Below, piece by piece: positions 1 through 35,106 of a stretch of 64,000 nt of DNA. Position 1 is the stretch's first letter, and each line of letters opens with the position of its first letter. The position numbers and the translations under genes were made by a program. The notes below the pieces were generated by a model. It was not told where the DNA came from, did not search any database, and saw only the letters and a program-made list of their open reading frames with translations. The DNA is from a bacterium (GTDB lineage: Bacteria > Sysuimicrobiota > Sysuimicrobiia > Sysuimicrobiales > Humicultoraceae): contig JBGQGY010000003.1 in assembly GCA_041497675.1 (NCBI GenBank), positions 335 to 64,334 on the forward strand. Reading direction: 5' to 3'.

Positions 1-908
1 TTGTCCTCCCCCACCAGCCCCAACCGGTCGATGCCCACCAGCGCGGCCCGCTTGTCCAGGATCCGCATCACGACCTTCTCGCCGAAGACCGTCGGGATCG
101 TCGAGACCCGCAGGTCGATCTCCCGGCCGTCGACGCGCAGTTCGATGCGGCCGTCCTGCGGGAGGCGGCGCTCGGCGATGTTCATGTTGGCCATGATCTT
201 GATGCGGCTCACGCCGGCAGCCTGGACGTGCTTGGGCGCCGTCATCACATTGTAGAGCGTGCCGTCGATCCGATAGCGGATCCGTACCTGGTTCTCCTGC
301 GGCTCCACGTGGATGTCACTGGCGCCCTGCCGCACGGCTTGGACCAGCACGAGGTTGACCAGACGCACGACCGGAGCTTCGTCGACGATCTCGCGGAGCT
401 TGTCGAGCCCGGGCTCGTCTTCCCCGACCTCGGACGGCCGGATCTCCTGGATGACCTGATCCAACGAAGTTTCCAGCGCCGGGTACTGGTTGACCGCGTG
501 CAGGAACCCGTCTTGCGTGATGACGGCCGGAATGAGGTCGCGGTCGGCGATGCGGCGGATGTCATCCAGCGCCAGCACATCGAGCGGATCGACCATCCCG
601 AGCACGAGCGCTTCGCCTTCGGCGCGCAACGGTAGCACCTGATAGCGGCGGATCGCCTGCTCGGGCAGGATCGTCAGGATGTCCTCGGGGATGGTGGTCG
701 CCTGGACGTTCACGTACTCCATGTTCATCTGACTGGCGATCGCCTTGGCGATCGCCTCCGGCGTCGCCAGACCCATTTTGACCAACACTTTGCCCAGCCG
801 GTCGCCAGTCGCATTCTGGGCCTGCAGTGCCTGCTCCAGCTGCGCCTGGGTAATCAGACCGGCTTCGACCAGGACCTCGCCCAGCCGCACCCGCCGGCGA
901 GCGGTCAT
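1..908 (-). CDS. PilB/GspE-family secretion or type IV pilus assembly ATPase, N-terminal ~300 aa; 3' end runs off the window start
   Basis: Translated the minus strand from ATG at 908-906 by hand: MTARRRVRLGEVLVEAGLITQAQLEQALQ... (T2SSE_N-like) ...LVNLVLVQAVRQGASDIHVEPQENQVRIRYRIDGTLYNV...RIKIMANMNIAERRLPQDGRI...IPTVFGEKVVMRIL. About 65% identical over this stretch to the 3318..5654 paralog. Absent from the ORF track because it has no in-window stop. Confidence 0.85.
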   Translation of the reverse strand, partial: MTARRRVRLGEVLVEAGLITQAQLEQALQAQNATGDRLGKVLVKMGLATPEAIAKAIASQMNMEYVNVQATTIPEDILTILPEQAIRRYQVLPLRAEGEALVLGMVDPLDVLALDDIRRIADRDLIPAVITQDGFLHAVNQYPALETSLDQVIQEIRPSEVGEDEPGLDKLREIVDEAPVVRLVNLVLVQAVRQGASDIHVEPQENQVRIRYRIDGTLYNVMTAPKHVQAAGVSRIKIMANMNIAERRLPQDGRIELRVDGREIDLRVSTIPTVFGEKVVMRILDKRAALVGIDRLGLVGED

Positions 909-912
909 GCCT

Positions 913-1155
913 CTAGATGGTTTCATGACGCTCCATCAGCATGACGACGTGAGCCTTGTGCACCATGACGACGGACGCTTCGTAGAGCAGCCGGCCGTCG
1001 AGGGAGAACACCCGCGCAGACGTGATCGGCAGGAAGTCTTTGGCCGAGTTCAGCCGGTCAGAAATCCGCGCGGTCGAGGGCAGGTGCAGGTCGCCCTCGA
1101 TCCGGTGGTGCGGCGTGAACAGGATGACCTGTTCTCGGTCGAGCTCTGACTTCAT
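913..1155 (-). CDS. small conserved hypothetical protein (~80 aa), translationally coupled between MerR and the GspE ATPase
   Basis: Internal ATG start (MKSELDREQVILFTPHH...KAHVVMLMERHETI) within ORF 913..1263. The ATG overlaps the MerR stop (ATGA arrangement). No family recognised. Confidence 0.5.
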   Translation of the reverse strand: MKSELDREQVILFTPHHRIEGDLHLPSTARISDRLNSAKDFLPITSARVFSLDGRLLYEASVVMVHKAHVVMLMERHETI

Positions 1156-1433
1156 CGACCACTCCCACGGCCGTCCCCGGCCATTTCCACCGGGCGTGTG
1201 CTCTCGATCAACCGCTGGATGCCCTTGAGGCTCATGCCACGATCCACCATGGCCTTGACCCAACGGATGCGTTCGACATCGTCTTCACTATACAGGCGAT
1301 GGCCACCGCCGGTCCGGGCCGGGGAGAGCAGGTTGTACTGGTCCTCCCACGCTCGGATCCGCCGGGGGTTCACCCCGGTCAGGTGCGCGACCGTCCGGAT
1401 CGGATAGATCGGCGCGCGACGGTCCACAATCAT
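1152..1433 (-). CDS. MerR-family HTH transcriptional regulator
   Basis: YPIRTVAHLTGVNPRRIRAWEDQYNLLSPARTGGGHRLYSEDDVERIRWVKAMVDRGMSL matches the MerR N-terminal HTH pattern. Stop/start overlaps with both neighbours. Confidence 0.8.
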   Translation of the reverse strand: MIVDRRAPIYPIRTVAHLTGVNPRRIRAWEDQYNLLSPARTGGGHRLYSEDDVERIRWVKAMVDRGMSLKGIQRLIESTRPVEMAGDGRGSGR

Positions 1434-3007
1434 CGGCTTCCCCCTCCGCTTCCCGCCGCGCGCTGGGCTGTGGCCAGATCACGGTCGCGCGGTGGACCGT
1501 AGCCATGATCGCGCAGGTACGTGTAGATCTCCTGAAGTTTCGAGAACCCGTGAAAGTCGGGGCGATACTCCGATTCGAGCTTGTAGTCCAGTTCGACGTA
1601 CTTGTTCAGCGTCACGAAGAACGCATACTGGACGATGTTGGACGGCGCTTCAGGCGCGTCGCGGTTCTTGTCGATAAAGAGGTTGACGATGTCGACCTTG
1701 GGAAGATCGTCGGTGGCGAACCCCTCGGCCCGCGAGCGCGTCTCGATCAATTGCTGCAGGTCGTGGGTCGCCTTCCAGTCCTTGGCCAGCACCATCGCCA
1801 CGTCCAAGTCGTACTCGAGGTCGCCGGACCCCATGCTGTGGTGCATCGTCGGCCGGTTGAACGGGTTGAAGACCTCGCCTTCCTCCACCGGTCGCTCGTC
1901 GAGCCGACAGCCTTCTTTGTCCAGCGGCGAGATGGCAAAGATCGGGCAGTCGAGTTCGAGGCTCATCTCCGCCAGCGCGGTTGAGATTCGGTCCGTGCGG
2001 CCCTTCGAGTCGTCCAGGTGCTCGGGCAGCGGGATCTTTTGTAGGTAGTCAAAGAAGATGCAGATGTCCTGTGTCTGAAACTCCTGCATCAGGTTGTGGG
2101 CGTGCGCCCTGATCCGATCGAGTGTTTCCTTCCTGCCGGCCTCGACCAAATGCAGGAAGGGCCCGTAACGGGCGAGCTTGGACTGCGCCGAAGCGACTCG
2201 AGGACCGACCGGCCGGCCGTCCGTGTCGGCGCCGATCAAAATCGAGGTCGGGTTGAGACCGGTCTCTTTCGCGATGAGCCGCGCGGCCAAGACGCGCCGG
2301 GTTTGCTCCCACGTGTAATAGAGCACGGGGATCTTGTGGTTGACGGCCACGTGCACGGCCAGATCGAGCGCCAGGTTGGTCTTCCCGCGGCGCGGCGCGC
2401 CGGCAAGGCCATAGTAGAACCCGCGGCGCAGCCCCGAGAGCAGCGTGTTGAGCCGGTCGAAGGGGCTGATCGAAAACCCGAGGATCCCGTCACTGGCCAC
2501 CGGCCGCAATTCCAACAAGGGACTGAACGCCTCCGAGATCGGCGCCACCTGGCGCCGAATACGCCGCCGCTGGATCTCCATCAGATTGTGGACGCAGTCC
2601 GCCGTGAACTGCACGATGTCGGGGTGCTGGCCGTCCTGCCGGTACAGGTACCCACCGATCGATTCGTGGACTTGGCCGAGCAGGTCGCGGCTCTCGCGGG
2701 CTTTCAGCACGTCGACCTGGGCCATCGCCTCCCCGGCGCTCAACGGCGGGTTCTCGATCACGTTGGCCAGATACCGCTCCATCTCAGGCGTCAACAGGCC
2801 GCGGTCGACCAGATGGACGCGCAGGGTGGACTCATCGACGACGGCATCCTGGGCGGCGTAGAGGTCGATGATGACCTTGGCCAGCCGCCGCGCGAGTGGC
2901 GACGCCAGCAGATCAACATGAAACCCCTCCGTCGAGGCAAGGGTAATCAAATGCCGATCGCGGATAAATCCGCTAAGCAGACGGATTTCAATCTGGTACA
3001 GATCCAC
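1430..3007 (-). CDS. atypical DnaB-like helicase C-terminal domain (RecA-fold) ATPase, 525 aa
   Basis: Walker A GLAGAPRRGKTNLALDLAV, DnaB-like Walker B ICIFFDYLQKI, SGDLEYDLDVAMVL (compare DnaB SGSIEQDADVV). Has insertions and a long divergent C-terminal tail. Stop overlaps the MerR start, so it is the first gene of a four-gene minus-strand operon. Confidence 0.7.
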   Translation of the reverse strand: MDLYQIEIRLLSGFIRDRHLITLASTEGFHVDLLASPLARRLAKVIIDLYAAQDAVVDESTLRVHLVDRGLLTPEMERYLANVIENPPLSAGEAMAQVDVLKARESRDLLGQVHESIGGYLYRQDGQHPDIVQFTADCVHNLMEIQRRRIRRQVAPISEAFSPLLELRPVASDGILGFSISPFDRLNTLLSGLRRGFYYGLAGAPRRGKTNLALDLAVHVAVNHKIPVLYYTWEQTRRVLAARLIAKETGLNPTSILIGADTDGRPVGPRVASAQSKLARYGPFLHLVEAGRKETLDRIRAHAHNLMQEFQTQDICIFFDYLQKIPLPEHLDDSKGRTDRISTALAEMSLELDCPIFAISPLDKEGCRLDERPVEEGEVFNPFNRPTMHHSMGSGDLEYDLDVAMVLAKDWKATHDLQQLIETRSRAEGFATDDLPKVDIVNLFIDKNRDAPEAPSNIVQYAFFVTLNKYVELDYKLESEYRPDFHGFSKLQEIYTYLRDHGYGPPRDRDLATAQRAAGSGGGSR

Positions 3008-3192
3008 CGGGCAGTTCCCTCCGATATCGGAAATCGGGGATCGTGCCTGACCCGGACTCAGTCAACCCTCTCGCCGTGAACTTCCCAGGAACCTCTCTGA
3101 CGTTGGCTTGCCTCGGGCATAACCTTGTTGCGATTGTGTTCCAATCTTCATCCGGGCAAGTCAGAATATGCCCAGAAGATTGTGGGGCTAGT

Positions 3193-3275
3193 CACGAACG
3201 GGCAAACCCGGAGCGATTCGGGGGCGCAAAACTACGGGACCGGGGAATATACATACCGGTCCCTGTTTTTCTTGG
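3193..3275 (+). promoter_or_regulatory. c-di-GMP-I (GEMM) riboswitch-like element in the 5' leader of the GspE-family ATPase gene
   Basis: CACGAACGGGCAAACC-CGGA-GCGA-UUCGG-GGGCGCAAAACUACGGG then hairpin ACGGGACCGG-GGAAUAUACAUA-CCGGUCCC followed by UGUUUUUCUU. It has the GGCAAACC box, a GNRA-capped first hairpin and a GCGCAAA(G/A)C junction resembling the Vibrio Vc2 aptamer (GGCAAACC AUUC GAAA GAGU GGGACGCAAAGCC). The second hairpin plus U-tract could act as terminator. Confidence 0.6.
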
Positions 3276-3317
3276 GGCTGCTGCCACATGGCAAAACGGC
3301 ATGGGTGAGGGTACGCA

Positions 3318-5654
3318 TTGGATCGGTCCCCGGACGAAGGCGCCATCCAGACTCTGAAAGCTTCCGTTGGCCTGCCCGCGGAGAGCCTGACGCTCGAACG
3401 GGCTTTCCTTCATGCGGAGGCACGCCAGGCCATGCGGTCCGCACAATGGGAGACCGCGCGCGACGCGCTGCAGCGTCTAGCGGCGGCCGATCCAGAGGAA
3501 CCATGGGTCTGCTGGGACCTGGCGGCGGCGTGCCGGGCGCTCGAGGACCACGAAGGCGCAGCTCTCGCGTATCTGACCGCGGCCGACAAGCACCTGGCCC
3601 GCGGCGAGACCGACCAGGTCCTCCAAGCGTACCAGCAGGCCGCCGCGATCTCGCCAAATGATCCGCAGATTCAAGCCAAGCTGGCGGAACCAGCCCCACC
3701 TCCATCGCAGCCCTCGGCAAGCCGGCCGGCAAACGCTTCACCGCGACCGGCGCCGCCCGCCGCGACCACGTCGCCGGAGACCGGTGCGCGTGCCGTGCCG
3801 GAGCGCAGCGACGCTCCGGTATTGCCAACGCCTCCCGGGCCATCGAAGGCCGACAAGCGAGGGGCGGCGGCGCCCGATGCACCTCCCACACCACCCGCGC
3901 GCGAGCCCGTCGACCCAGCATCCCAGGCGGCGCGGGCACCGCGGCCGCGACTGGGCAGCAAAACCGAGACGCTGGGCCAGGTGCTCCAGCAACTGGGCAT
4001 CATCACCGCCCACCAACTCAACGAATCGCTCGAGATTCAGGCGCGCACCGGCGAGCGCATCGGGCAAATCCTGCGCGACATGGGCGTGATCAGCGACACC
4101 GACCTGGCGCGCGCCATGGCGCACCAGTGGGCCTACCCGTACCTCTCCCTGGCGGAGCGGCGGCCAGATACTGAGATCGTCAGGCTGATCCCGCACGCGC
4201 TGGCGATGCGGCACAAGTGCGTCGCCGTCGAGCGCGCCGGGGGCCGGCTGCTCGTCGCGATCAGTGATCCGCTGAACGTCATCGCCGTCGACGACGTCCG
4301 CCTCATCACCGGCATGGAAGTCGACCTCGCGGTCGCCACCGAAGAAGACATCACCACCGCGCTGGCGCGCGGCTATCAGCTGTCCGACACGACGATTGAG
4401 AAGGTCCTGCGCGAGTCCTTACCCGATTCTGCGGGGGATCTCGGCGATGAGGATGTCTCGATCGAGCAGCTGAAGGCGTTGGTTGAGGAAGCGCCTGTCG
4501 TCAAGCTCGTCAACCTCGTAGTGGATGAGGCGGTCAAGCAAGGCGCCAGCGATATCCACGTCGAGCCGCAGCGCAACGGCGTCTGGGTGCGGTTTCGCGT
4601 GGACGGGGTGCTGCGCGACGTGATGAACCCGCCTAAGCACCTGAAGTCGGCGCTCGTCTCGCGCATGAAGATCATGGCTGAGATGGACATCGCCGAGCGC
4701 CGTCGCCCCCAGGATGGGCGCATCCATCTGATCGCCGATGGCCGCAACATCGACCTGCGCGTCTCGACGCTCCCCACGATGTATGGCGAGAAAATCGTGA
4801 TGCGCATCCTGGATCAAGCCCAGACCATGATCGGGCTGACCCGGCTGGGCTTCCACAGTGATACGCTCCGACAGTGGGAGAGCTCGGTCAGCAAACCCCA
4901 CGGGATGGTGTTGGTCACCGGGCCGACCGGGAGCGGGAAGACGACGACCCTCTACGCCACGCTGAGCAAGCTCAACACGCCCGAACTCAATGTCGTGACG
5001 GTCGAGGACCCCGTCGAGTATCAGATCAGCCGTATCAACCAGGTCCAAGTGAACATTAAAGCCGGCATGACCTTTGCCACCGCGCTCCGGCACATCCTGC
5101 GCCAGGACCCAGACATCGTCATGGTCGGTGAGATCCGCGACAAAGACACGGCCGAGATCGCGGTGCAGGCCGCACTCACCGGCCACTTGGTCCTCTCAAC
5201 GCTCCACACCAACGACGCGGCGGGCGCGGTCACGCGGCTGGTCGACATGGGGGTTGAACCGTTCCTGATCAGCTCGTCGGTCATTGGGGTGCTGGCGCAG
5301 CGTCTCGCCCGGGCCATCTGCTCCCGTTGCAAGGTCGCCTACTCGCCGCCACCCGAAGCGCTCGGCCGTCTCGGTGCGGATGTGCGAATCGATTCCGATG
5401 TGACCTTCTATAGAGGCCAAGGCTGCGAGTCGTGCCGCGGCACCGGTTACCGCGGTCGGATCGGCATCTTCGAACTGCTGATCATCAGTGACGCCGTCCG
5501 CGACCTGGTTGTCCACAACGCCTCCTCCACCGAGATCAAGGCGCAGGCGATCCGTGAGGGCATGCGCACGCTGCGGGATGACGGCCTCGAGAAAGTCATG
5601 TCCGGCATCTCCACCATCGACGAGATCCTGCGGGTCGTGTACGTCCAGGACTGA
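3318..5654 (+). CDS. PilB/GspE-family ATPase with N-terminal TPR-like domain and Pro/Ala-rich linker (778 aa)
   Basis: T2SSE_N-like region (LGQVLQQLGIITAHQL...), Walker A GPTGSGKTT, Asp box, Walker B DPDIVMVGEIRD, His box LVLSTLHTND, tetracysteine CSRC...CESC. TTG start at 3318; ATG at 3432 is an alternative. N-terminal ~100 aa TPR-like, then low-complexity P/A-rich segment. Confidence 0.9.
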   Translation: MDRSPDEGAIQTLKASVGLPAESLTLERAFLHAEARQAMRSAQWETARDALQRLAAADPEEPWVCWDLAAACRALEDHEGAALAYLTAADKHLARGETDQVLQAYQQAAAISPNDPQIQAKLAEPAPPPSQPSASRPANASPRPAPPAATTSPETGARAVPERSDAPVLPTPPGPSKADKRGAAAPDAPPTPPAREPVDPASQAARAPRPRLGSKTETLGQVLQQLGIITAHQLNESLEIQARTGERIGQILRDMGVISDTDLARAMAHQWAYPYLSLAERRPDTEIVRLIPHALAMRHKCVAVERAGGRLLVAISDPLNVIAVDDVRLITGMEVDLAVATEEDITTALARGYQLSDTTIEKVLRESLPDSAGDLGDEDVSIEQLKALVEEAPVVKLVNLVVDEAVKQGASDIHVEPQRNGVWVRFRVDGVLRDVMNPPKHLKSALVSRMKIMAEMDIAERRRPQDGRIHLIADGRNIDLRVSTLPTMYGEKIVMRILDQAQTMIGLTRLGFHSDTLRQWESSVSKPHGMVLVTGPTGSGKTTTLYATLSKLNTPELNVVTVEDPVEYQISRINQVQVNIKAGMTFATALRHILRQDPDIVMVGEIRDKDTAEIAVQAALTGHLVLSTLHTNDAAGAVTRLVDMGVEPFLISSSVIGVLAQRLARAICSRCKVAYSPPPEALGRLGADVRIDSDVTFYRGQGCESCRGTGYRGRIGIFELLIISDAVRDLVVHNASSTEIKAQAIREGMRTLRDDGLEKVMSGISTIDEILRVVYVQD

Positions 5655-5698
5655 TCTCGACGGGTCGACGGGGCGGACGAGCCCGTGGTCAAAAGGAT

Positions 5699-5738
5699 GA
5701 GGAGCCGGCGCGGTCACGCCGGCTCCTCGGTGTTGTGT
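5699..5738. terminator. bidirectional intrinsic terminator between convergent genes
   Basis: GAGGAGCCGGCG-cggtca-CGCCGGCTCCTC 12-bp stem followed by GGTGTTGTGT on plus, with CCTTTT on the minus side. Confidence 0.6.
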
Positions 5739-5747
5739 AGAGCGCCG

Positions 5748-6104
5748 CTAGACGAGCGCGGCAGCCAGCTGGCTGTTACGCCGCATCTCCAACCGGATGC
5801 GACCGAGATTGGCCTGTTTGCCGCCGACGACCACCATCATGGCGTCGGGGCCCGCCGGGCCGACCGCGATCGGACCGTCATCGTACTCGAGCAACATGCT
5901 GCGCATCGCCCCCCGGCTCATTTCGCGTCCCATCGAATCCGCCGCGGCCATGCTGCTGGCCACGATGGCGCCAACGGCCTCCAGGTCGATGGCCTCTTCA
6001 CTCGTCATCCCCTCGACGACAAACCCATCCCGGCCAACGACCAGGACGGCGACGACCCCCTCGACTTTGGCCAGGTCGCTGATGACATCCTTCAGCTGCG
6101 ACAT
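5748..6104 (-). CDS. Roadblock/LC7 (MglB-like) domain protein
   Basis: MSQLKDVISDLAKVEGVVAVLVVGRDGFVVEG...AIDLEAVGAIVASSMAAADSMG...MMVVVGGKQANLGRIRLEMRR matches the Roadblock/LC7 pattern. Internal ATG at 6104 with upstream AGGAGGGGAA; the longer ORF 5748..6248 is an antisense-style extension. Confidence 0.8.
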   Translation of the reverse strand: MSQLKDVISDLAKVEGVVAVLVVGRDGFVVEGMTSEEAIDLEAVGAIVASSMAAADSMGREMSRGAMRSMLLEYDDGPIAVGPAGPDAMMVVVGGKQANLGRIRLEMRRNSQLAAALV

Positions 6105-6153: not shown

Positions 6154-6969
6154 CTACAGTGTTCCGTGCGACGGTACGCCCATGACACCCCGCAGTTTGG
6201 TGAGCGCTGAGGCCAGCACCCGCGAGACATGTTTCTGCGAGATGCCAATTCTCTTTGAGGCTTCGGTCTGGGTGAGATCGGTGTAGAACAGGTAGTAGAC
6301 GACCTTGCGCTGTAGCGAGTTCAGGGATTCCATCGCTTCGACCAGCATCACGCGATCTTCTATGGGTAACTGGAAGCTGATGTGGGATCGGTGCTTGATG
6401 CGCTCTCGGTCGACGCGCAGGTCGCCGCCCTCTTCTTCGGTCTCAAGGGAGATCGTCCGGAGGGCCTCACGGGTACGCAGCACCTCGAGCAGCCCTTCCT
6501 CTTCGATATTGAGCTCGGAGGCCAGCTCTTCCAGCCCGGGAAACCGCCCCTCTTCCGCAACGTATTTGCCGACGGTGTCCTCGATCTGGGTGTTGAGCTT
6601 CTGCAGCCAGCGCGGTTTCCGAATCGTGTCGCGCTGATCCCGCAGGTAATGGCGGATCTCGCCGCGGACCAGATAGCTCGCGTACGTCGCGAACTTCGCG
6701 CCCCGCGTCGGATCGAAGGCCGCGATGGCATTGAGCAACCCGATGTACCCCACCTGCACGAGATCGTCGGTCGGAACACCCGAGAACACAAATTCTGAGG
6801 CGATGCGCCGCACCAGCGGCGTGCACGCGTGGACGACTCGTTCTCGGATCGCTGGGTCGGGGCTCTCGACGTACTGGGCCATCAATACATCTTCGTTCTC
6901 GTGCTCGGTCACACGGGGTGTGATCTGCTCTTGTCGAACCGGTGCGCGTTGCGCGCTGCGGACTGCCAT
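6154..6969 (-). CDS. RNA polymerase sigma factor, sigma-70 family group 3 (SigB/SigF/FliA-like)
   Basis: Region 2 DLVQVGYIGLLNAIAAFDPTRGAKFATYASYLVRGEIRHYLRD; region 4 HTH LTQTEASKRIGISQKHVSRVLASALTKLR. GGAGG lies 6 nt upstream of the ATG at 6969. Confidence 0.85.
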   Translation of the reverse strand: MAVRSAQRAPVRQEQITPRVTEHENEDVLMAQYVESPDPAIRERVVHACTPLVRRIASEFVFSGVPTDDLVQVGYIGLLNAIAAFDPTRGAKFATYASYLVRGEIRHYLRDQRDTIRKPRWLQKLNTQIEDTVGKYVAEEGRFPGLEELASELNIEEEGLLEVLRTREALRTISLETEEEGGDLRVDRERIKHRSHISFQLPIEDRVMLVEAMESLNSLQRKVVYYLFYTDLTQTEASKRIGISQKHVSRVLASALTKLRGVMGVPSHGTL

Positions 6970-7031: not shown

Positions 7032-7110
7032 CCCTTCGGCAGCCCGGCCAACCGTGACGGTCCCGGAGCTTTGCGCCCCCACCTTGCGATGGGTTTGCCC
7101 TTTCGAGGAT
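7032..7110 (-). promoter_or_regulatory. c-di-GMP-I (GEMM) riboswitch-like aptamer A, leader of the sigma factor/Roadblock operon
   Basis: Minus-strand RNA: UCGAAAGGGCAAACC-CAUC-GCAA-GGUGGGG-GCGCAAAGCUCCGGGACCGUCACGGUUGGCCGGGCUGCCGAAGGG. GGCAAACC box, GCAA GNRA-capped hairpin, GCGCAAAGC junction. About 85% identical to element B at 12046..12140. Confidence 0.7.
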
Positions 7111-7257: not shown

Positions 7258-8199
7258 TTACCGGGCCGCGGATGCCCCCGCCGCGGGACGGGATCGGCTG
7301 ACGTACTTGAACGCCAGTCGGTGTGAAACCAGTGCCTCCAGAATGCCCCCGACTTGGGCCGGCGTCAAGCCCGTTTCGGAGGCAATCTCGGCCAGGGTGT
7401 GCGCGCCGTCGAGGAGACGCAGAACCGTCCCGGTGACGCCGTTGCTCACGACCCCGGCGAGCTCCGCGGCGACGTCCGAAGGCAGATTCTCCGCGACACC
7501 CGGCGATAGCAGATACCGTGCCTCCCGGGCGAACCGGCCGAAAACAGCTTCCAGTTCCCGCGACGGCGCTGCGGGCGGTGGCGGCGCGACCTCAGGCTGC
7601 GCACCCGCCTCCTCGACCGCGGCGACCTTGATCGCCGGGACCTCGATCACCGGGACGTCAACCGGCGCAGCGTCGACGGGCGCAACGTCGGCGGGCGCAG
7701 CGTCGACCACCGCAATGGGTTCTGAGGCCGGCGTGACGACTGAGACTGTCTGCGCCTGCAGCGAGCCGGTGATGACGATGATCCATCCCCTGGCCTGCTT
7801 CATGACGGCGCCAGACGTCGCTGCCGACGCCGGCTCGATGACGGCGAGCGCTCCCCCATTGAGGTCCAGCACCGCTGGTTTGGGTCCGAGCACGAGCACT
7901 ACGGCGCTCGCTTGGTCAGACTGTAGACGGGCGATGTAGCGGTCGAGGTGGACGAAGTCAGTATGCAGCGCCGCGCCTGAAAATTCTAGTGACGCGATCC
8001 GCTCCACGACGTCCTTGCGCAGCCGTAACTGAGCGGATTCCGCGCGGGCCGGTGGACCATCGGCGAACACCGCATCCGGCGCGCCGACATGCCAGCCGCT
8101 GGGCCCAAAGACCGCCGCGCAGGGCGTCGATGCTTCGAAAATCGCCGCCACGCCTCCGAGCCAAGCGTAATGAGTAATCCTGGCAGTCGCGGCGGCCAC
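7258..8199 (-). CDS. hypothetical protein with C-terminal HTH-like segment and internal (APVDA)n low-complexity repeat
   Basis: 313-aa ORF with uniform codon use. C-terminal ...VLRLLDGAHTLAEIASETGLTPAQVGGILEALVSHRLAF resembles a winged-helix/HTH. Last gene of the riboswitch-B operon; start is 4 nt after the upstream stop. Confidence 0.55.
   Translation of the reverse strand: MAAATARITHYAWLGGVAAIFEASTPCAAVFGPSGWHVGAPDAVFADGPPARAESAQLRLRKDVVERIASLEFSGAALHTDFVHLDRYIARLQSDQASAVVLVLGPKPAVLDLNGGALAVIEPASAATSGAVMKQARGWIIVITGSLQAQTVSVVTPASEPIAVVDAAPADVAPVDAAPVDVPVIEVPAIKVAAVEEAGAQPEVAPPPPAAPSRELEAVFGRFAREARYLLSPGVAENLPSDVAAELAGVVSNGVTGTVLRLLDGAHTLAEIASETGLTPAQVGGILEALVSHRLAFKYVSRSRPAAGASAAR
7664..7708. 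repeat. 15-bp tandem repeat x3 (ggcgcagcgtcgacg) inside the CDS
   Basis: ggcgcagcgtcgacg / ggcgcaacgtcggcg / ggcgcagcgtcgacc, coding APVDAAPVDAAPVD on the minus strand. Confidence 0.7.
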
Positions 8200-8202: not shown

Positions 8203-8979
8203 TCAGATGTCCTCCTGTACCGTCCGCTGCCAGAAACCACCCAGCGCGAGAAAGACGAAGCCCGCCACCCACAGCGCATTGATCGTGTGGACTTCCGAGT
8301 AGAGTTCGTACCAGCTGAGAAACGCGTAGCCCAGACTGGCGACCGCCAGACAGAGCGCCGAGGCGGCGACGGCCAGCCAGGTATATGCCGAGGTGCCGCC
8401 GCGAAACCCGACGGCGGGTAGCAACCCCGCGGGCACGAGAAAGACCGCGATGGTCGGATAGAAGACCGCCAGCACCTTCACCGTTGTCGGCGCCGGACTG
8501 GCCATGATCGGGCTCACGATGAACTCGAAGCCAAGCGCCCACCCCACGACACCGAGTCCCACCAGCGCGAGGCGGACCGGGCGATCGACCATTGGTGCAA
8601 CCAACCGGATCTCCAGACCGAGGGCGAGACCAAGCAGCAGGTAGAAGACGACGAAGAACCCGTCGGCGATCGACGGGTACGGCAGTGCCCGTCCCCCCCA
8701 CCATTGGTAGAACGCAAAGACCCCGCGGCCGGCCGCCCAGGCTAGCGCCGCCAGCCCCCCGATGGACCACACCGCGCGCTCGCGATCGCCCGACACGTAG
8801 GCGCGTCGAGCCGCGAGGCACCCGATACCGGCAAGGATCGGCGCAACGATCTGAACTGCCGAGCCCAGCACGTGTCGGGCCAGGCGGCCCTGGAGGCTGG
8901 TTTCTGCCGCACCGTACGCGTAGGCGGCGGCCAGGACAAGGCCGCCCATGACGATGAGCAGCACGCGAAAACGCTTCAT
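8203..8979 (-). CDS. integral membrane protein, ~7 predicted TM helices (258 aa), unknown function
   Basis: MKRFRVLLIVMGGLVLAAAYAY... followed by multiple hydrophobic stretches. ATG at 8979 overlaps the upstream stop (ATGA). The longer 353-aa ORF has an Arg-rich N-terminal extension that looks like antisense or out-of-frame readthrough. Confidence 0.65.
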   Translation of the reverse strand: MKRFRVLLIVMGGLVLAAAYAYGAAETSLQGRLARHVLGSAVQIVAPILAGIGCLAARRAYVSGDRERAVWSIGGLAALAWAAGRGVFAFYQWWGGRALPYPSIADGFFVVFYLLLGLALGLEIRLVAPMVDRPVRLALVGLGVVGWALGFEFIVSPIMASPAPTTVKVLAVFYPTIAVFLVPAGLLPAVGFRGGTSAYTWLAVAASALCLAVASLGYAFLSWYELYSEVHTINALWVAGFVFLALGGFWQRTVQEDI

Positions 8980-9830
8980 CGAGCCGCTCCGGAGTCGCCG
9001 GCACCTGCCGCGTCGCGTTCGGCTGCGGCAATCGCCCGGTCGACGAACGCACGACCGGCGACGGCGATGATCGGTTCGCACGCCGTCTCGACGATGACCC
9101 GCCACGACGCCTCGGAGATCGGAGGCGCATACACGCGGGTTCCGTCGACCCGGCCGCCATGCGGCGCGAGCGCGGCGGCGAGCGTCGATGTGAACCGCTG
9201 GGCGAGCCGCTGGCCGCGATGACGCGCTACCCGTTCGGCCACGCCTTCCATGGTGCGCGGCCACGGTCGGGTCGACGCCTCAACGGGGGCCACGGGTTCC
9301 GTCGCCACCACGCGCTCGCCGGCAGCAGTCGCTCGCGCTGGCGGCGCTTCGCTCACCGGGGCGACCGGCTCGACGACCGGCGGAGCGGTCACCACCTCAG
9401 CCACCTCCGCCGGCTCAACCGCTGGCATCGACTGCGACGTCACGAGGCTCTGCCCTGGGACTTTGAAGACCGTCGCCGGGGCTGCGGACGGTGGGCCCGC
9501 CGCCTGTCCGAAGGCGACGTCTGGCGGCGCGCCCACATACACGCTCAGCGTCGAACCGTTTGACGCCATCTCGCGGAAGAGGTCGTGCCCGCCGGCACCG
9601 GCCAGCACGGCCTCTCCGCCGTCAACGTCAAAGAACCAGGCGTCCTGCGCCTCGCCCTCGTGCACCCAGACCAGGCTCTCCATTTCGAGGTCGGCGAGGT
9701 AGATGCCGCCTTCAAACCCGCGGCCGATCAAATGCGCCAGCAGCCCGTCGATATCCACCGCATCGCCGGGGAAGTCGGTGACTAAGGCCGGTCCGGCCCG
9801 GAGCACTTCGAGTGCTTGACGCCGGTTCAC
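8976..9830 (-). CDS. hypothetical protein, DUF4388-like N-terminal motif (tentative), Pro/Ala/Val-rich middle
   Basis: GDAVDIDGLLAHLIGRGFEGGIYL resembles the DUF4388 G-x-x-x-F-x-L-x-D-L-L-Q-x-L...G-x-L signature as I recall it. Probable GTG start at 9830, with AGGAG 5 nt upstream and 8 nt after the TAXI gene stop. Confidence 0.5.
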   Translation of the reverse strand: MNRRQALEVLRAGPALVTDFPGDAVDIDGLLAHLIGRGFEGGIYLADLEMESLVWVHEGEAQDAWFFDVDGGEAVLAGAGGHDLFREMASNGSTLSVYVGAPPDVAFGQAAGPPSAAPATVFKVPGQSLVTSQSMPAVEPAEVAEVVTAPPVVEPVAPVSEAPPARATAAGERVVATEPVAPVEASTRPWPRTMEGVAERVARHRGQRLAQRFTSTLAAALAPHGGRVDGTRVYAPPISEASWRVIVETACEPIIAVAGRAFVDRAIAAAERDAAGAGDSGAAR

Positions 9831-9838
9831 GTGAGCTC

Positions 9839-10810
9839 CTACTTGATGCCTCGCTCCCTGTAGAAACGCAGAGCGCCGGCATGCATCGTAATTGGCATCC
9901 CCGAGCGTGACGTGTTGGTCGTAATGTCCTTGCCGCGCGCATGGGCGGCCTGCAATCGGTCGGTGTTGGTCCACAGCGCCGAGGTCAACGTGTAGATCAG
10001 GGCTTCCTCGATGTCCTGACGCGTCACCAGCATCGCCATCACCGCTGCGGTATCCACTGACTCGGTCTGGCCCTTGTAGGTGTTGGCCGGTACCGTCACG
10101 CGTGTGTAATAGGGGTACTGCTCGCGCAGCATCTCCACGACGTCTCTTGGGATCGCCAGGACCTTCAGGTCGCGGCTGGACGCGATATCCTGTACAGCCG
10201 CTGTCGGGAACCCCGCTGTAATGAACGCCGCGTCGATCACGCCATCCTTCAACTGATCGGCGGCCTCGGCGAAGTTCAGGAAGTCCGGCCGCGTGTTGTA
10301 ATAGCCGAGTTCAAACGCGCGGAGAATCTGACGCGCGTTGATCTCGGTGCCGCTGCCCGGCGCGCCGACGGCGATGCGCTTGCCCTTGAGATCGGCGATC
10401 GAATTGATGTTCTTGGACTTCAGCGTGACGACCTGAATCGTCTCCGGATACAACATCGCCATGCCTCGAAGATTCGCGATCGGCTGGGTCTTGTTGGCGA
10501 CGCGATCCATAAACATCTCGGTCCCGTGGAAGGCGTAGTAGGTGATATCGTTCTGGATGAACGCCACCGCCACGTCGCTCCGCTGTAGCAGGCGGATGTT
10601 GGCGACCGAGGCGCCGGACGTCTGCGCCGTCGCCTGGACGTTTGGCACCTTGCCGCTCCACACTTCCGCCAGCGCCGCGCCCAACGGGAAGTAGACACCC
10701 GCCGTGCCGCCCGTTGCAATGGCGACAAACGTGCGCTGTTGGGCCATGGCGGGCCAGACGGCTACGCTGAGCACCGCCAGTATGACGATTCCGAGTGTGA
10801 TCCGACGCAT
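9839..10810 (-). CDS. TAXI-family TRAP transporter solute-binding protein (orphan, no DctQM permease adjacent)
   Basis: Signal peptide MRRITLGIVILAVLSVAVWPAMA; VAIATGGTAGVYFPLGAALAEV matches the TAXI signature. Start codon choice among M1, M9 and M16 is uncertain. Confidence 0.8.
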   Translation of the reverse strand: MRRITLGIVILAVLSVAVWPAMAQQRTFVAIATGGTAGVYFPLGAALAEVWSGKVPNVQATAQTSGASVANIRLLQRSDVAVAFIQNDITYYAFHGTEMFMDRVANKTQPIANLRGMAMLYPETIQVVTLKSKNINSIADLKGKRIAVGAPGSGTEINARQILRAFELGYYNTRPDFLNFAEAADQLKDGVIDAAFITAGFPTAAVQDIASSRDLKVLAIPRDVVEMLREQYPYYTRVTVPANTYKGQTESVDTAAVMAMLVTRQDIEEALIYTLTSALWTNTDRLQAAHARGKDITTNTSRSGMPITMHAGALRFYRERGIK

Positions 10811-10858
10811 GTGCGCTCTCCTCCTCATCATCGTGTCGAACGGATGGACCCTCATACG

Positions 10859-11983
10859 CTATCGCTGGATAATCTCAAACTGTCCTTGGTGCACTCGGGC
10901 CACGGCTACCGGGCGGGACGGCACACCCCATCGATCAAGGGTGATCTGACCGGTCACACCGGGAAACTTCCGGAGCCCCTGCAGCGCGGTCTTGATCGCG
11001 ACGGGGCTTCTGTCACCACGGCGCATCGTGGACGCCAGCATCTTCACCGCATCGTAGGCCTGTGCCGCGAAATGGTCCGGCGTCTCGTTGAACTTCTTCC
11101 GATACTTGGCCCCGAACTCTTGGACGATCGGTAGCGGATCGCTGGCCACAAACGGCGCAGGCAAGAGCACATCCTCCGCGTAGATTTTGGCCCACGCCAC
11201 GAGATCGGTCGAATACAGCGCGTCGGATCCCACGATCGGCACCCGAACGCCGCGGCCTTTGAGCGCCGCCACGATCAACGCGCCCTCATCCGGGTACCCG
11301 GCCACAAAGACCGCGTCCGCCCCGTCGGCGAGCACGCCGGTCACGTGACGGGTGAAGTCGGTGTCCCCGTCGTGGTAGAGCCTCGTGCCGACGACCCGAC
11401 CACCCAACCCCTTGATCCGCTCGGCAAATGCGAGGGCGACCATGGTGCCGTACTCGTTGGCATCGTGGATGATGGCCAACCGGCGCGTATTCCGGGTACG
11501 CACAAGAAAATCCGCGAGGGTGCGCGCCTGAGCTTCAGCGGACAGCGACGTGCGGAAAAACGAGGACCCCGAGTAGGGAATCGTCCCGGTAGCGCCTGGG
11601 CTGACCAGGGGGATCCCCGCGCGCTCAGCCATCGGCGCGACGGCCAGCGCGGTCGCGTCCGTCACCGGTCCCACCACGGCGACGATCTTTTGCTTCACCA
11701 GATGCTCGAACTGCTTTGCGGCCTCATCGGCGGTGCCGCGATCGTCCTGCACCATCAGCGTGATCGACGCGCCGCCGACCCCACCCGAGGCGTTGATCTC
11801 TTCAGCGGCGAGCGTGGCACCCTGCACGACGGACTTGGCCGCGGCGGGCACGCCGCTATTGAGCGGCGCCAGGATGCCGATAATAACTGACTCCTGCGCC
11901 CGGAGCGCGGCGCTGGGACCGCAGGCGGAGGTCGCGAGCGCTGCGAAGATGATCGCCGCGGCCCCGAGTGTCATCGTTTTCAT
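10859..11983 (-). CDS. type 1 periplasmic binding protein (LivJ/branched-chain amino acid-like), lipoprotein; orphan SBP
   Basis: MKTMTLGAAAIIFAALATSAC (lipobox), then a PBP1 Leu/Ile/Val-binding-like fold (IVAVVGPVTDATALAVAPMAERAGIPLVSP...). First gene downstream of riboswitch B. Confidence 0.75.
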   Translation of the reverse strand: MKTMTLGAAAIIFAALATSACGPSAALRAQESVIIGILAPLNSGVPAAAKSVVQGATLAAEEINASGGVGGASITLMVQDDRGTADEAAKQFEHLVKQKIVAVVGPVTDATALAVAPMAERAGIPLVSPGATGTIPYSGSSFFRTSLSAEAQARTLADFLVRTRNTRRLAIIHDANEYGTMVALAFAERIKGLGGRVVGTRLYHDGDTDFTRHVTGVLADGADAVFVAGYPDEGALIVAALKGRGVRVPIVGSDALYSTDLVAWAKIYAEDVLLPAPFVASDPLPIVQEFGAKYRKKFNETPDHFAAQAYDAVKMLASTMRRGDRSPVAIKTALQGLRKFPGVTGQITLDRWGVPSRPVAVARVHQGQFEIIQR

Positions 11984-11997
11984 GTGTGTCACCGCCT

Positions 11998-12036
11998 GTG
12001 AACACAAAATGCCTTTCGGCCGCCTGCCGAAAGGCA
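11998..12036 (-). terminator. intrinsic terminator forming the expression platform of riboswitch B
   Basis: Minus-strand RNA: AUGCCUUUCGGC-AGGCG-GCCGAAAGGCAU UUUGUGUUC. Perfect 12-bp stem plus U-tract, 15 nt before the SBP ATG. Confidence 0.65.
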
Positions 12037-12045
12037 TACCACGCC

Positions 12046-12140
12046 TGCCCCTTCGGCAACCCGGCCGGCCGCGCGGTTGGACGTCCCGCGCGCCCCCGTG
12101 GCTTTGCGTCCCCACCTTGCGATGGGTTTGCCCGTTCGGA
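12046..12140 (-). promoter_or_regulatory. c-di-GMP-I (GEMM) riboswitch-like aptamer B, leader of the SBP/DUF4388/7TM operon
   Basis: Minus-strand RNA: CCGAACGGGCAAACC-CAUC-GCAA-GGUGGGG-ACGCAAAGCCACGGGGGCGCGCGGGACGUCCAACCGCGCGGCCGGCCGGGUUGCCGAAGGGG. It has the GGCAAACC box, a GNRA-capped hairpin and GGGACGCAAAGCC, which matches the Vc2 junction exactly. Confidence 0.75.
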
Positions 12141-12261
12141 GGCTCTATGCAGTTTGCGGTGCTACCTTTTCTCTACCCCGCCGCGGCTTCGCCTAGACCT
12201 CTGCCTACCCTCCAACAGATGTCCCGAGAGTTGCGGCAGGGTTCCTCCAAGAAGCCATACG

Positions 12262-13191
12262 CTAGAGCGAGAGCAATCGACGGTACAGCTGCGTGACGTT
12301 GTAGACGTACCACTTGGTCTCGTCATAGGGCGGGATGCCTTCATAGCGTTCCACCGCGGCGCGGCCCGCATTGTACGCGGCCAGGGCGAGATGCACGTTG
12401 TCGTATCCGAACCGATCGAGGTTGCCACGCAAGTACCGGATCGTCCCGTAGAGGTTTTGCACGGGATCCTGTGGATCGACGCCCAATGCCCGCGCTGTAT
12501 CCGGCATCAACTGGCCCAATCCCAGTGCCCCCGCCCGCGACGTCACATGCGGTTGGAATCCGGACTCGACCACGACGAGAGCCACGACCAAACGCGGGTC
12601 GATGTTGAATCGATACGAGTATCCGAGCAGCGCCTGCGCGATCTTCTCTGCAACCTCGGGCTGGAGTCTCGGGTTGTAGTAACGCGCGAGCTGCGTATAG
12701 CTCTCAATCGTCGTGACCCACGCCGGCGCCGTCGGTGCGCCGCCCTTCAACGCCGCCAGTTTTGGCACGGGCTTGACGACCCGTAGCCCCTGCAGCGCCA
12801 GCTCGTGGATGCGGTCAGATCCTGGTGCCAGCAGGGCGCGCTGAAACGCCACCTCGGCCTCCCCGGACCGGCCGCCCTGGGCGAGGACGTATCCCCACCA
12901 CAACAGCACGGTGGAATCGCGTGGCGCCAGACGGACCGCCGATTCAAGCACCTGCACCGCCAGCCGTGGCTCGCCCCGATAGTGGTAGACGATCCCAAGC
13001 CACAACCAGCCCTCGGGGTCACTCGGCCGCTGCGCAACCTCGCGGGTGAAGACCGCTTCGGCGTCGCGCAGGCGGCCCTGTGCGACCAGCGCCGCGCCCT
13101 CCCGGAGCGCCGCCGGACCGCTCGGGGCCGCGACGGCCGAGCCGGCCGCAAGAGTGATCAGCAACACGAGCAGGATCACGCCGGTCTTCAT
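12262..13191 (-). CDS. TPR-repeat lytic transglycosylase (SLT domain)
   Basis: Signal/TM MKTGVILLVLLITLAAGSAVA, TPR-like repeats, then an SLT core VVVESGFQPHVTSRAGALGLGQLMPDTA...AYNAG. ATG at 13191 overlaps the Roadblock stop. Confidence 0.8.
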   Translation of the reverse strand: MKTGVILLVLLITLAAGSAVAAPSGPAALREGAALVAQGRLRDAEAVFTREVAQRPSDPEGWLWLGIVYHYRGEPRLAVQVLESAVRLAPRDSTVLLWWGYVLAQGGRSGEAEVAFQRALLAPGSDRIHELALQGLRVVKPVPKLAALKGGAPTAPAWVTTIESYTQLARYYNPRLQPEVAEKIAQALLGYSYRFNIDPRLVVALVVVESGFQPHVTSRAGALGLGQLMPDTARALGVDPQDPVQNLYGTIRYLRGNLDRFGYDNVHLALAAYNAGRAAVERYEGIPPYDETKWYVYNVTQLYRRLLSL

Positions 13192-13547
13192 CCCAGTTGC
13201 TCCACGATCTCGGCCTTCCGGCGCCGTATCTGCAGCCGTGCCCGGGCCAGATTGCCGCCGGCATCGAGCACGGTCGCCACATAGTGTATCTGGCTCACCG
13301 CCATCACCAAGACCGCCAGGCTTTCGGTCGTGAGCGTCACGTAGTCCAGATCCCCGCCCTCGAGCTTCCGAGTGCAATAGGCCCCCACTTTGATCAGCGC
13401 GGCCAGGTCGACACTGGCTTTGGAGAGGTCGCTCGGGCCGCCCTTCGTCACCGCCTCGATGACAGTACCATCCATTGCCACGACCGCGGCGGCACGCGTG
13501 TCGTCGCCCACGAGCTCCTGCAAGATGCCTCTTAGTTTGGTTCCCAT
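13188..13547 (-). CDS. Roadblock/LC7 (MglB-like) domain protein, second copy
   Basis: MGTKLRGILQELVGDDTRAAAVVAMDGTVIEAV...VDLAALIKVGAYCTRKL...LAVLVMAVSQIHYVATVLDAGGN. Start taken at M47 of the listed ORF; M33 at 13589 is an alternative. Confidence 0.75.
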   Translation of the reverse strand: MGTKLRGILQELVGDDTRAAAVVAMDGTVIEAVTKGGPSDLSKASVDLAALIKVGAYCTRKLEGGDLDYVTLTTESLAVLVMAVSQIHYVATVLDAGGNLARARLQIRRRKAEIVEQLG

Positions 13548-13651
13548 GCTCGGCCCCGGGCGGCCGTCAGTGTTCGCCAATGACCCCATGCCTCCTGCCG
13601 AGAAGAGGAATTGTCGATGGCGGCATCGTAGCATCGCCCGGGGAAGGTGAC

Positions 13652-14620
13652 ATGCACACCGCGTTGATCGAACGCATCCGCACACATCGCCGGATCCTGA
13701 CCAGCCGTTGGTCGAAGGCCCTGAAAGAGGCCCCCGGCGCGAACCCGTGGTGGCAAGACACTGAACGGACCGATCGACTCCTGTTCGCCGGCCTTGAAGC
13801 CCTGATCGAGGCCGTGAGCTCCGGCAACGATGAGTTGTTCGTCGCCTTCGCCTCGCGCCTCAGCCAGGAGGCCTTCGCGCTCCAGGTTCCACCCAATGTC
13901 GTCATCCGCGCCATCCTGACCGGAAAGGTCATTGTCACCGAGTTCCTGACCGAACCCGACTCCTCGCCTGGCCTCGACGTCGCCACCGTGCAGTCGCTCG
14001 ATCGGGTCGTCTCCGCCGGCATCCTCGAAGGGATCCGGCGGCACGAACGACAGCGCGAACGCCGGCTGCTCACCGCGCAAGAGCAGCTCGAGCAGCTGCG
14101 CGACCGCCTCCGCCGTCAGGTCGTTGTCGACCCGGCGACGGGTCTCTACAACGCCAACTACTACTCGATCGCCGTGCGCCGCGAAGTTCGCCGTAGCCAG
14201 CGGTTCGGCCGCGTCTTTTCGCTCGCCCTCGTCGCCCCCGACAAAGATGACGGGGTCCGCGACGCCTGGGGCGACGAAGGTCTGCGTGCCGTGTCGATCA
14301 CACTCGCCGACATCCTGACCCGCTGCACCCGGCAGGTCGATCTGCGGGCGGCGCTCGGCGGCGTCCGCTTCGGTCTGATCCTGCCTGAAACGCCGATGGA
14401 GGGCGCGTTCGTGCTCGCCGAGCGCATCCGCGTCGCGGTCGAACAGCAGGCGTTCACACTCCCCGATCACCCATCCCCCGTGACACAGACTGTCAGTATC
14501 GGGCTGGCGAGTTTCCCCCGCGATGCCGAAGATGACCGAGGGATGCTCTCCCGGCTCGAAGAGGCCCTGGCGCGCGCTCGCGGTGGCGGCAACACGACCG
14601 TCGCTGCCGCGTCGGCATAG
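13652..14620 (+). CDS. GGDEF-domain protein with degenerate active site (GGVRF) and intact RxxD I-site; probable c-di-GMP receptor
   Basis: DPATGLYNANYYSIAVRREV...RQVDLRAALGGVRFGLILPET. RQVD lies 5 aa before GG(V)(R)F. Internal ATG (MHTALIERIRT) chosen because the upstream part of the ORF overlaps the divergent Roadblock gene. Confidence 0.75.
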   Translation: MHTALIERIRTHRRILTSRWSKALKEAPGANPWWQDTERTDRLLFAGLEALIEAVSSGNDELFVAFASRLSQEAFALQVPPNVVIRAILTGKVIVTEFLTEPDSSPGLDVATVQSLDRVVSAGILEGIRRHERQRERRLLTAQEQLEQLRDRLRRQVVVDPATGLYNANYYSIAVRREVRRSQRFGRVFSLALVAPDKDDGVRDAWGDEGLRAVSITLADILTRCTRQVDLRAALGGVRFGLILPETPMEGAFVLAERIRVAVEQQAFTLPDHPSPVTQTVSIGLASFPRDAEDDRGMLSRLEEALARARGGGNTTVAAASA

Positions 14621-34896: not shown

Positions 34897-35106
34897 TCTT
34901 CGCGTCCTGCCCCACTCAGAAGTTCCCCCGAACGTCGGTGTCAATTGCCTAGCGACTCCCAAGAGATTCTTGCAGCCCGCTCAGCCCCCCGAACGGGAGA
35001 GTACCCGCCGCTCGGAGGATGGTCGTTCGAGCAGGACTCGCCTACCTTTGAGAACACTTAGGCTTTCGTGGTGGTGGCCGGAACGACCCCGAAAGGAGCT
35101 GCGCCG

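Follow-up and report, generated by a model that had tools for sequence, protein, structure and literature searches.

Why should a gene for a DnaB-type ATPase stand first in an operon that ends with the assembly ATPase of a type IV pilus? The question is raised by a 64,000-nucleotide stretch of a bacterium of the phylum CSP1-3/Sysuimicrobiota (GenBank assembly GCA_041497675.1, contig JBGQGY010000003.1, positions 335 to 64,334; hereafter the window), on whose minus strand, from position 3007 to position 1, four genes follow one another with successive stop/start overlaps and encode a DnaB-like protein, here called DnaBL, a short MerR regulator, a DUF6812 protein and the pilus assembly ATPase PilB (Table 1). 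The original prediction for this DNA had described the four-gene operon together with a divergent PilB paralogue, and had held that such an arrangement was undescribed. All of these genes proved to be present and operonic, and the arrangement, conserved in dozens of related loci, is more than chance; in the literature searched (subscription journals lay outside its coverage) neither a DnaB-like gene in pilus operons nor DUF6812 is described. According to the sequence comparisons reported here, DnaBL probably belongs to the pilus machinery as an accessory component not recognised before. The locus is best classed with a known type of system, the motor clusters of type IV pili, to which it would add a new family of accessory ATPases. 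More specifically, it probably encodes the motor of a CSP1-3 type IV pilus under the control of cyclic di-GMP (c-di-GMP), with DnaBL as the accessory ring ATPase of that system.

Judged by the overlapping stop and start codons, DnaBL is co-transcribed with MerR, the predicted Sm-like DUF6812 protein and PilB. The pilB gene is indeed truncated by the edge of the window, as had been proposed, but its start lies at an in-frame ATG at position 926 (MKPSRGMTARRR...) rather than at 908; this start agrees with the one called in homologues and gives a 14-nt overlap with the DUF6812 stop, and therefore all four genes overlap. The PilB fragment scores 262 bits against TIGR02538 for 302 residues. The two PilB paralogues of the window are 44% identical over the 294 residues that can be compared, and the identity of about 65% first ascribed to their core holds only in the N1E/ATPase segment. 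In close homologues (L001, L008, L011, L086 and others) pilB is directly followed by pilT and pilC, which in our case fall outside the window; the assignment to the type IVa pilB-pilT-pilC motor clusters is thus drawn from the T2SSE-containing PilBs in the window and from the order of pilT and pilC in those homologues. Close homologues, up to 98% identical, come from metagenome-assembled genomes (MAGs) labelled Armatimonadota, which belong to the phylum CSP1-3/Sysuimicrobiota, genus Fervidifonticultor and relatives.

As far as its sequence tells, DnaBL is a complete, though rare and highly diverged, relative of the helicase DnaB, in which the ATPase site and the arginine finger are intact. It consists of an N-terminal helical collar domain, a linker helix and a RecA-type C-terminal domain. 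A 70-member profile aligned end to end (profile positions 5-474) with Geobacillus DnaB in a PDB profile alignment (2vye/2r6a), and in fold comparisons the AlphaFold2 model of DnaBL (predicted local distance difference test score 79.7) matched full-length Helicobacter pylori DnaB over 385 aligned residues, with gp41, RadA, Twinkle, gp4, KaiC (19) and FlaH (17.3) ranking lower. The description of the protein as an atypical DnaB C-terminal-domain ATPase fell short, as we are dealing with a full-length DnaB paralogue with N-terminal domain and linker. A KaiC-like signalling module, which had been offered as an alternative, is rejected because of this domain architecture: the N-terminal domain and linker are those of DnaB, the best sequence and fold matches are to DnaB throughout, and the KaiC model PF06745 gives no match to the window protein.

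The Walker A motif of the window protein reads GAPRRGKT and its Walker B motif FFDYLQK. Residue invariance was judged on the alignment of the same 70 family sequences, in which G203-K209 (GAPRRGK), E234 (YYTWEQT), D320-Q323 (DYLQ) and K447/R449 (DKNRDAP, the arginine finger) do not vary and T210 is kept in at least 90%. The residues K364, R368, R385 and H389 of the pore-loop region are likewise invariant, in a loop that is conserved and modelled at low confidence. With replicative DnaB (TIGR00665; Geobacillus, PDB 2vye/2r6a) DnaBL shares the domain order, the Walker A motif, the catalytic glutamate, the DYLQ motif and the K-x-R finger. It differs in scoring far below the curated cutoff of this equivalog (94.7 against 385.25 bits; for the phage DnaB model TIGR03600, 100 against 499 bits), in having motifs H3 and H4 replaced, in standing outside any rplI-dnaB context, and in carrying an insertion of about 20-30 residues in the pore loop, a second one before the arginine finger and a C-terminal extension of about 50 residues.

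The family was delimited by a search of 1.84 billion representative proteins, in which it stood out as small and discrete: about 13 full-length clusters at 50% identity scored 450-800 bits, followed by at most 147 bits for some 35,000 other DnaB-like representatives, and the nearest matches outside the family were themselves sub-threshold DnaB paralogues. The supplements of the CSP1-3 papers contain no dnaB or pilB entries. Outside CSP1-3 the family is patchy, with members in Acidobacteriota, Desulfomonilaceae, Riflebacteria and one Clostridia-like contig. The analysis defines in this way a previously unnamed family of DnaB paralogues with the diagnostic motifs YYTWEQT, SPLDKEGCR, GSGDLEYDLD and DKNRDAP, currently mis-annotated as "replicative DNA helicase" in IMG.

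Could this annotation nevertheless be correct, DnaBL being an unusually diverged replicative helicase of CSP1-3 to which the pilus linkage is irrelevant? The gene is present in a single copy per MAG in all CSP1-3 lineages sampled, the 64-kb window contains no other dnaB gene and the automatic JGI annotation reads as just given; the sole canonical dnaB of the organism was also the case that the original prediction had named as speaking for coincidence. However, the protein reaches 95 of the 385 bits required for replicative DnaB, its NCBI name is only "DnaB-like helicase C-terminal domain-containing protein", the same discrete family is scattered over the remote groups listed above, and a replication-gene neighbourhood was found at none of the DnaBL loci examined. 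Moreover, on two contigs of another lineage (L132 and L140; GC content about 0.3) a canonical rpsF..rplI-dnaB locus lies 8 kb from DnaBL. On the 21.6-kb low-GC contig of L132 the canonical locus and the secretin-DnaBL cluster occupy positions 388-2803 and 8527-14391, respectively, and the canonical DnaB is 46% identical to Geobacillus DnaB over 428 residues, with the motifs DYLQL, SQLSR and SGAIEQDAD. Because a canonical rplI-dnaB coexists with it, DnaBL of this lineage is a paralogue and not the replicative helicase, and for CSP1-3 we consider a replicative role very unlikely.

Diverged chromosomal DnaB paralogues are usually of phage, plasmid or defence origin, and the best PHROG match of DnaBL is a DnaB-like replicative helicase (phrog_19, 116 bits), as would be expected if a phage, plasmid or defence island carrying this helicase had happened to integrate beside the pilus genes. 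Yet no family member was present among 72,556 plasmids or 50,697 phages (identity at most 28%), the PADLOC search for defence systems gave zero matches, no integrase or phage genes lie nearby and the chromosomal position is stable across a phylum. With the plasmid, phage and PADLOC searches all negative, an origin of this kind is effectively refuted, and we give it hardly any credence.

Some variation within and around the family should be recorded here. One superclade (L092, L093, L096-L124, L128, L132; P0160, P0161) bears an N-terminal zinc ribbon of the form CxxC-x(10-12)-CxxC, followed in some members by a Pro/Gln-rich low-complexity linker of 150-250 residues, and often a basic C-terminal tail (e.g. 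RVKIRLKDI), whereas the CSP1-3 proteins have neither the ribbon nor that tail. No fusion partners other than the zinc ribbon and the low-complexity linker were found in the N-terminal extensions of DnaBL proteins. A distant sister group, A5, of about 395 residues (P0180, P0183, P0184, P0221, P0296, P0312-P0317) is devoid of the N-terminal domain of DnaB, and its Walker A is often degenerate; it has the C-terminal extension of DnaBL and a basic K-x-K-x-S-L-K-L tail. The A5 loci L088-L091 are always divergent from a polysaccharide-type cluster with an epimerase and a GT2 glycosyltransferase (plus an AMP-binding protein); these relatives were considered as an independent test of the pilus linkage and set aside, given that their neighbours are such polysaccharide genes instead.

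The linkage itself was studied in 172 DnaBL loci, of which 80 came from GTDB genomes, 80 from JGI metagenomes and the others from contig look-ups; at 60% identity they fall into 19 clusters. In the two large CSP1-3 clusters, PilB is found within 10 kb of DnaBL in 39 of 41 and in 19 of 20 loci, the exceptions being short contigs. The gene order of the window, which the original prediction had proposed to look for in other genomes, recurs within CSP1-3 as variant A: a PilB with fused tetratricopeptide repeats (TPR) on the opposite strand, followed by DnaBL-MerR-DUF6812-PilB-PilT-PilC. Variant B reads sigma-MerR-sigma-x-Roadblock-TPR-PilB-DnaBL-PilB-PilT-PilC, with all genes co-directional and gaps of 2-48 nt around DnaBL, and variant C has TPR-PilB on the opposite strand, then DnaBL-PilT-PilC, the second PilB being absent. 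A fourth order was met in L054, namely pilC..pilA-pilA-DnaBL-x-pilD-minor pilins-pilM-pilN-pilO..secretin. DnaBL adjoins the TPR-fused PilB in every pilus-linked CSP1-3 variant, and the genes outside the cluster differ among the variants, which means that the flanking synteny has decayed.

Related pilus associations were found in remote lineages. A Riflebacteria-like clade (31 loci, GC content 0.34-0.61), whose DnaBL has the N-terminal zinc ribbon and shares about 36% of its residues with the window protein, has a cluster of DnaBL, a lipoprotein of about 590 residues and a 248-residue protein; on the opposite strand stand two prepilin-motif proteins, an 842-residue GspK/PilX-like protein and a 186-residue protein, and then come a TPR protein and an MshEN-PilB, these last two seen in the loci that reach about 10 kb downstream of DnaBL (L093, L098, L099, L105, L118). 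The order secretin-DnaBL-lipoprotein-FHA/GAF/HD-GYP occurs in L132 and L140, and in L127 PilB and PilT lie 2.7 kb downstream of DnaBL. In a tree of representatives, the deepest split of the family separates CSP1-3 from these other pilus-associated lineages. The TPR theme also recurs: the repeats are fused to PilB in CSP1-3, come from a gene of their own immediately ahead of PilB in the Riflebacteria-like clade, and are fused to Roadblock in L079. In this last locus a 742-residue TPR and Roadblock/LC7 fusion (3597-5825) lies upstream of DnaBL and an MshEN and coiled-coil protein (11920-13558; no T2SSE in the 546 residues available) downstream of it; domains that surround DnaBL in CSP1-3 recur there in different fusions.

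Taken together, gene order and phylogeny point towards a functional association of DnaBL with the pilus machinery, which we favour with moderate confidence. Another explanation is that DnaBL is a stand-alone helicase, for instance for repair, restart or specialised replication, without a mechanistic tie to the pilus, that its operon position is inherited synteny in one CSP1-3 clade, and that the other adjacencies are coincidental or a matter of co-regulation. Several observations weigh against the association. The pilus-linked CSP1-3 loci are monophyletic, that is, one lineage has kept the adjacency through rearrangements, and because of this the four CSP1-3 gene orders are not four independent origins. 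The majority of the DnaBL lineages are unlinked, a pilus gene within 10 kb being absent in at least 12 of the 19 clusters, among them the sister CSP1-3 clade, Acidobacteriota and Desulfomonilaceae. DnaBL also occurs inside unrelated housekeeping operons, between accB and accC with gaps of 3-10 nt on two low-GC contigs (L079, 7483-11025; L094, 1287-4880) and ahead of serS in L095; since accB-DnaBL-accC exists, tight embedding in an operon is by itself no proof of shared function. None of the Pfam families of comEA, comEC and dprA was found in any pre-annotated DnaBL neighbourhood, and the protein has the full architecture of a helicase and lacks any pilus-specific domain. Finally, the canonical H3 motif SQLSR is replaced by a near-invariant SPLDKEGCR and the H4 motif RESGSIEQDAD by H-x-x-GSGDLEYDLD, with a large insertion between the two. 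In canonical DnaB, H3 and H4 contact DNA and the gamma-phosphate and couple the nucleotide state to the binding of single-stranded DNA; because these motifs are replaced, DNA binding by DnaBL is an assumption. What speaks against mere inherited synteny is that the adjacency of DnaBL and pilus genes outlasts four rearrangements though the surrounding synteny is gone, that lineages from either side of the deepest split, remote from one another, likewise have pilin, TPR and PilB or secretin genes next to DnaBL, and that, by our own estimate, only about 1-2% of random positions would have PilB within 10 kb by chance. A stand-alone helicase, kept in place by descent, we think unlikely on balance.

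The unlinked clades were also inspected for other shared partners. A YfcE/MJ0936-type metallophosphoesterase gene accompanies DnaBL in 25 loci of two phylum-level clades (L004, L039-L055, L061-L071), directly downstream of it in Acidobacteriota and a few genes off in the unlinked CSP1-3 clade, and in Desulfomonilaceae a small ABC/AAA_21-like ATPase gene lies downstream. Both candidates were rejected: they give no unifying theme, because they are absent from the window and from the pilus-linked loci. Other neighbours, among them enolase, hydrogenase subunits, dynamin-like GTPases, CrcB and HypA, seem to have no connection.

If the functional association with the pilus is accepted, a mechanism may be outlined. 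DnaBL would form a two-tier hexamer. What brings it to the pilus base would most plausibly be the TPR fused to, or encoded beside, PilB, together with the family-specific C-terminal extension of DnaBL. There it might handle DNA, pulling in or unwinding DNA taken up on pilus retraction. DNA handling appears to be the most likely job of DnaBL because all structural features of a translocase are kept, including the long conserved basic pore loops, and we put forward this version of the coupling tentatively, as a possibility that would require DNA binding. Ring helicases with a part in competence are known, RadA/Sms having a zinc finger and a Lon-like domain and no DnaB N-terminal domain, and ComM belonging to the AAA+ proteins; to our knowledge, neither is normally encoded inside pilB-pilT-pilC operons. 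The setting also differs from theirs in the missing comEA, comEC and dprA genes mentioned above.

A different role would do without nucleic acids: DnaBL would regulate the PilB hexamer, or partner it in the manner of a stator, as a bacterial counterpart of the archaellum pair ArlH-ArlI (FlaH-FlaI). A RecA-fold ring would dock on the secretion-type ATPase, possibly via the TPR, and the nucleotide state of the ring would gate pilus extension. Such a role would explain why DnaBL always stands beside a TPR-associated PilB, which is the sole nearby PilB in variant C and in the Riflebacteria-like cluster, and why the TPR are either part of PilB or encoded directly upstream of it; the family-specific C-terminal extension or basic tail could serve as TPR ligand. 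The replacement of the canonical DNA-contacting motifs, the A5 relatives, which are without the N-terminal domain, often with degenerate Walker A, and next to polysaccharide-synthesis and not DNA genes, and the precedent of ArlH-ArlI itself (doi 10.1101/2021.03.19.436134) point the same way. Nevertheless, the DnaB N-terminal collar, the linker helix and the long conserved basic pore loops are all kept in DnaBL, which would be needless in a pure regulator. ArlH has no more than one RecA domain, KaiC-like and about 230 residues long, as against the 525 residues of a full DnaB with collar. No sequence relationship links the two beyond the superfamily, and the system here is a bacterial PilB/PilT/PilC pilus and not an archaellum. 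We hold this regulator role to be rather improbable. We lean slightly towards the broader proposal that a DnaB-family hexamer is a genuine type IV pilus component, be it as a DNA-uptake translocase or as an ArlH-ArlI analogue. The TPR of a PilB that senses c-di-GMP would recruit this hexamer, which would be stacked on the PilB ring or placed next to it. If the proposal holds, the deepest split of the family, with pilus associations on either side, would point to an ancient association.

A comparison may be drawn with the polarity module of Myxococcus and Thermus, in which MglA-MglB act with the TPR protein SgmX on PilB. A Roadblock/LC7 gene lies near the TPR-fused PilB here as well; on the other hand, among the genes of the locus no MglA GTPase was recognised, its TPR are fused to PilB instead of being separate, and DnaBL has no counterpart there. 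Type IV pilus motors are generally taken to require nothing in the cytoplasm beyond PilB, PilT/PilU and PilC, and lineage-specific accessory factors are so far known only from cyanobacteria (Hfq, EbsA) and from Myxococcus (SgmX, MglA/B). A conserved DnaB-type ring ATPase in the motor clusters of two unrelated uncultured phyla would represent a new class of component. It would also be a concrete candidate for filling a long-standing gap, namely the factor that handles DNA, or gates the motor, on the cytoplasmic side of the pilus; in one version it would be a dedicated translocase for DNA uptake, the first to be tied directly to a pilus motor. The proteins are regarded as soluble and hence open to heterologous expression.

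The two small proteins of the operon may contribute to the same machine. The DUF6812 gene lies directly upstream of pilB, overlapping it, and is confined to one CSP1-3 subclade. Structure modelling assigns an Sm-like fold to DUF6812, the protein being a predicted Sm/LSm-like beta-barrel with a short internal helix in place of the Sm-type N-terminal helix; in comparisons with Pfam and NCBIfam it matched no LSM or Hfq family, only DUF6812. In cyanobacteria, where accessory genes are grouped around pilBTC, the Sm-fold protein Hfq attaches to a C-terminal extension of PilB1, and both pilus assembly and competence depend on Hfq (PMC12288463). This Hfq-PilB1-EbsA system likewise has a small Sm-fold protein working with PilB, which on the DUF6812 side is a prediction; DUF6812 differs in not being Hfq by sequence and in its restriction to a single subclade. 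Because of the analogy with cyanobacterial Hfq, DUF6812 may be regarded as a possible PilB-binding partner, and in the mechanism outlined it would probably bind PilB in a similar manner. MerR, in turn, is to judge from its sequence a bare DNA-binding module, with a helix-turn-helix and the start of a coiled coil and without an effector domain, for which its 93 residues leave no room. Its nearest NCBIfam models are HspR, MlrA and the CarH N-terminus, every equivalog scoring below its cutoff. Variant B also keeps a MerR gene, upstream between two sigma genes. The intergenic region 3008-3317 was scanned for promoter and terminator consensus sequences and for MerR-type palindromes, and nothing convincing was found except a riboswitch-like hairpin.

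Control of the locus by c-di-GMP is suggested at more than one level. Both PilBs carry the MshE-type c-di-GMP-binding motif (NCBIfam), and GGDEF and HD-GYP genes stand near the locus, HD-GYP recurring near DnaBL in five clades. The riboswitch aptamer ahead of the sigma and Roadblock genes (7034-7108) has counterparts of 71 bits each at the same position in L001, L009 and L086, and in L002 this place is taken by a canonical c-di-GMP-I; a GEMM-I riboswitch ahead of a SigF-like alternative sigma factor is unusual. The aptamer-like motif in the leader of TPR-PilB (3192-3274) reaches 51 bits in its counterpart in L001 (9797-9885, minus strand). Of 41 divergent loci, 12 have kept the motif, its second helix showing compensatory changes. 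In the window the second hairpin (inverted repeat 3236-3243/3256-3263) is followed by a T-run, and the two may constitute a terminator. MerR, the c-di-GMP riboswitches and the MshEN domains would then set when the machine is made and when it is active. Near the aptamer-like sequence at 12051-12141, the open reading frame called at 10859-12115 probably starts further downstream, near MKTMTLG.

Table 1. Features of the window (positions from its first letter; motor cluster, putative regulatory RNAs and neighbouring genes).
Feature	Position	Strand	Basis and remarks
PilB (type IV pilus assembly ATPase), N-terminal 308 residues only	1..926	-	MshE-type c-di-GMP motif, MshEN and start of T2SSE (Pfam/NCBIfam); continues past the window start
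DUF6812 protein, 80 residues	913..1155	-	PF20660, 59 bits; start overlaps MerR stop (ATGA)
Short MerR regulator, 93 residues	1152..1433	-	PF13411 (MerR_1), 82 bits; start overlaps DnaBL stop (ATGA)
DnaBL, 525 residues, first gene of the operon	1430..3007	-	PF03796 (DnaB_C), 82 bits; AAA_25
GEMM-I-like aptamer (candidate)	3192..3274	+	5' leader of TPR-PilB; RF03168, 36 bits, E 3e-5, below gathering score
TPR-linker-MshEN-T2SSE PilB paralogue, 778 residues	3318..5654	+ (divergent)	TIGR02538, 663 bits; c-di-GMP motif, 53 bits; linker Pro/Ala-rich
Roadblock/LC7 (MglB-like) protein	5748..6104	-	PF03259, 55 bits; adjoins the sigma gene in homologous loci too
SigB/SigF/SigG-type alternative sigma factor	6154..6969	-	TIGR02980, 180 bits; kept in variants A and B
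c-di-GMP-I-GGC riboswitch aptamer	7034..7108	-	Leader of sigma/Roadblock genes; RF03167, 63.5 bits, above the Rfam gathering score of 59 bits
Two conserved hypothetical proteins upstream of the sigma gene	7258-8199, 8976-9974	-	About 44% identical to the L086 pair; no Pfam family
c-di-GMP-I-GGC-type aptamer (candidate)	12051-12141	-	56.4 bits, E 3e-11, just under 59; upstream of Peripla_BP_6 and NMT1_3 substrate-binding-protein genes
Second Roadblock/LC7 gene, then TPR-SLT lytic transglycosylase, then GGDEF cyclase and GAF-HD-GYP phosphodiesterase	region 12262-13547, 13475-14620, 14642-16264	-, +, -	
Lone prepilin-type (N_methyl) gene	35068-35523	+	30 kb from the motor cluster
MoxR AAA_3 - DUF58 - BatA/VWA - BatA/VWA - TPR (Bat-like) operon	48126-52080	-	Ordinary-looking

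Among the neighbouring genes, the first of the two hypothetical proteins upstream of the sigma gene shows a weak C-terminal match to an IclR-type helix-turn-helix, and an overlapping open reading frame (8203-9264) is probably spurious. The pair is found in variant-A loci, and in L086 a GEMM-I-type match precedes it. The Roadblock-TPR-SLT-GGDEF group adjoins the pilus cluster in L086 as well. A set of minor pilins lies between Roadblock and TPR-PilB in L001, L010, L015 and L060 and is missing at that position in the window. The remainder of the window consists of ordinary housekeeping and transport genes.

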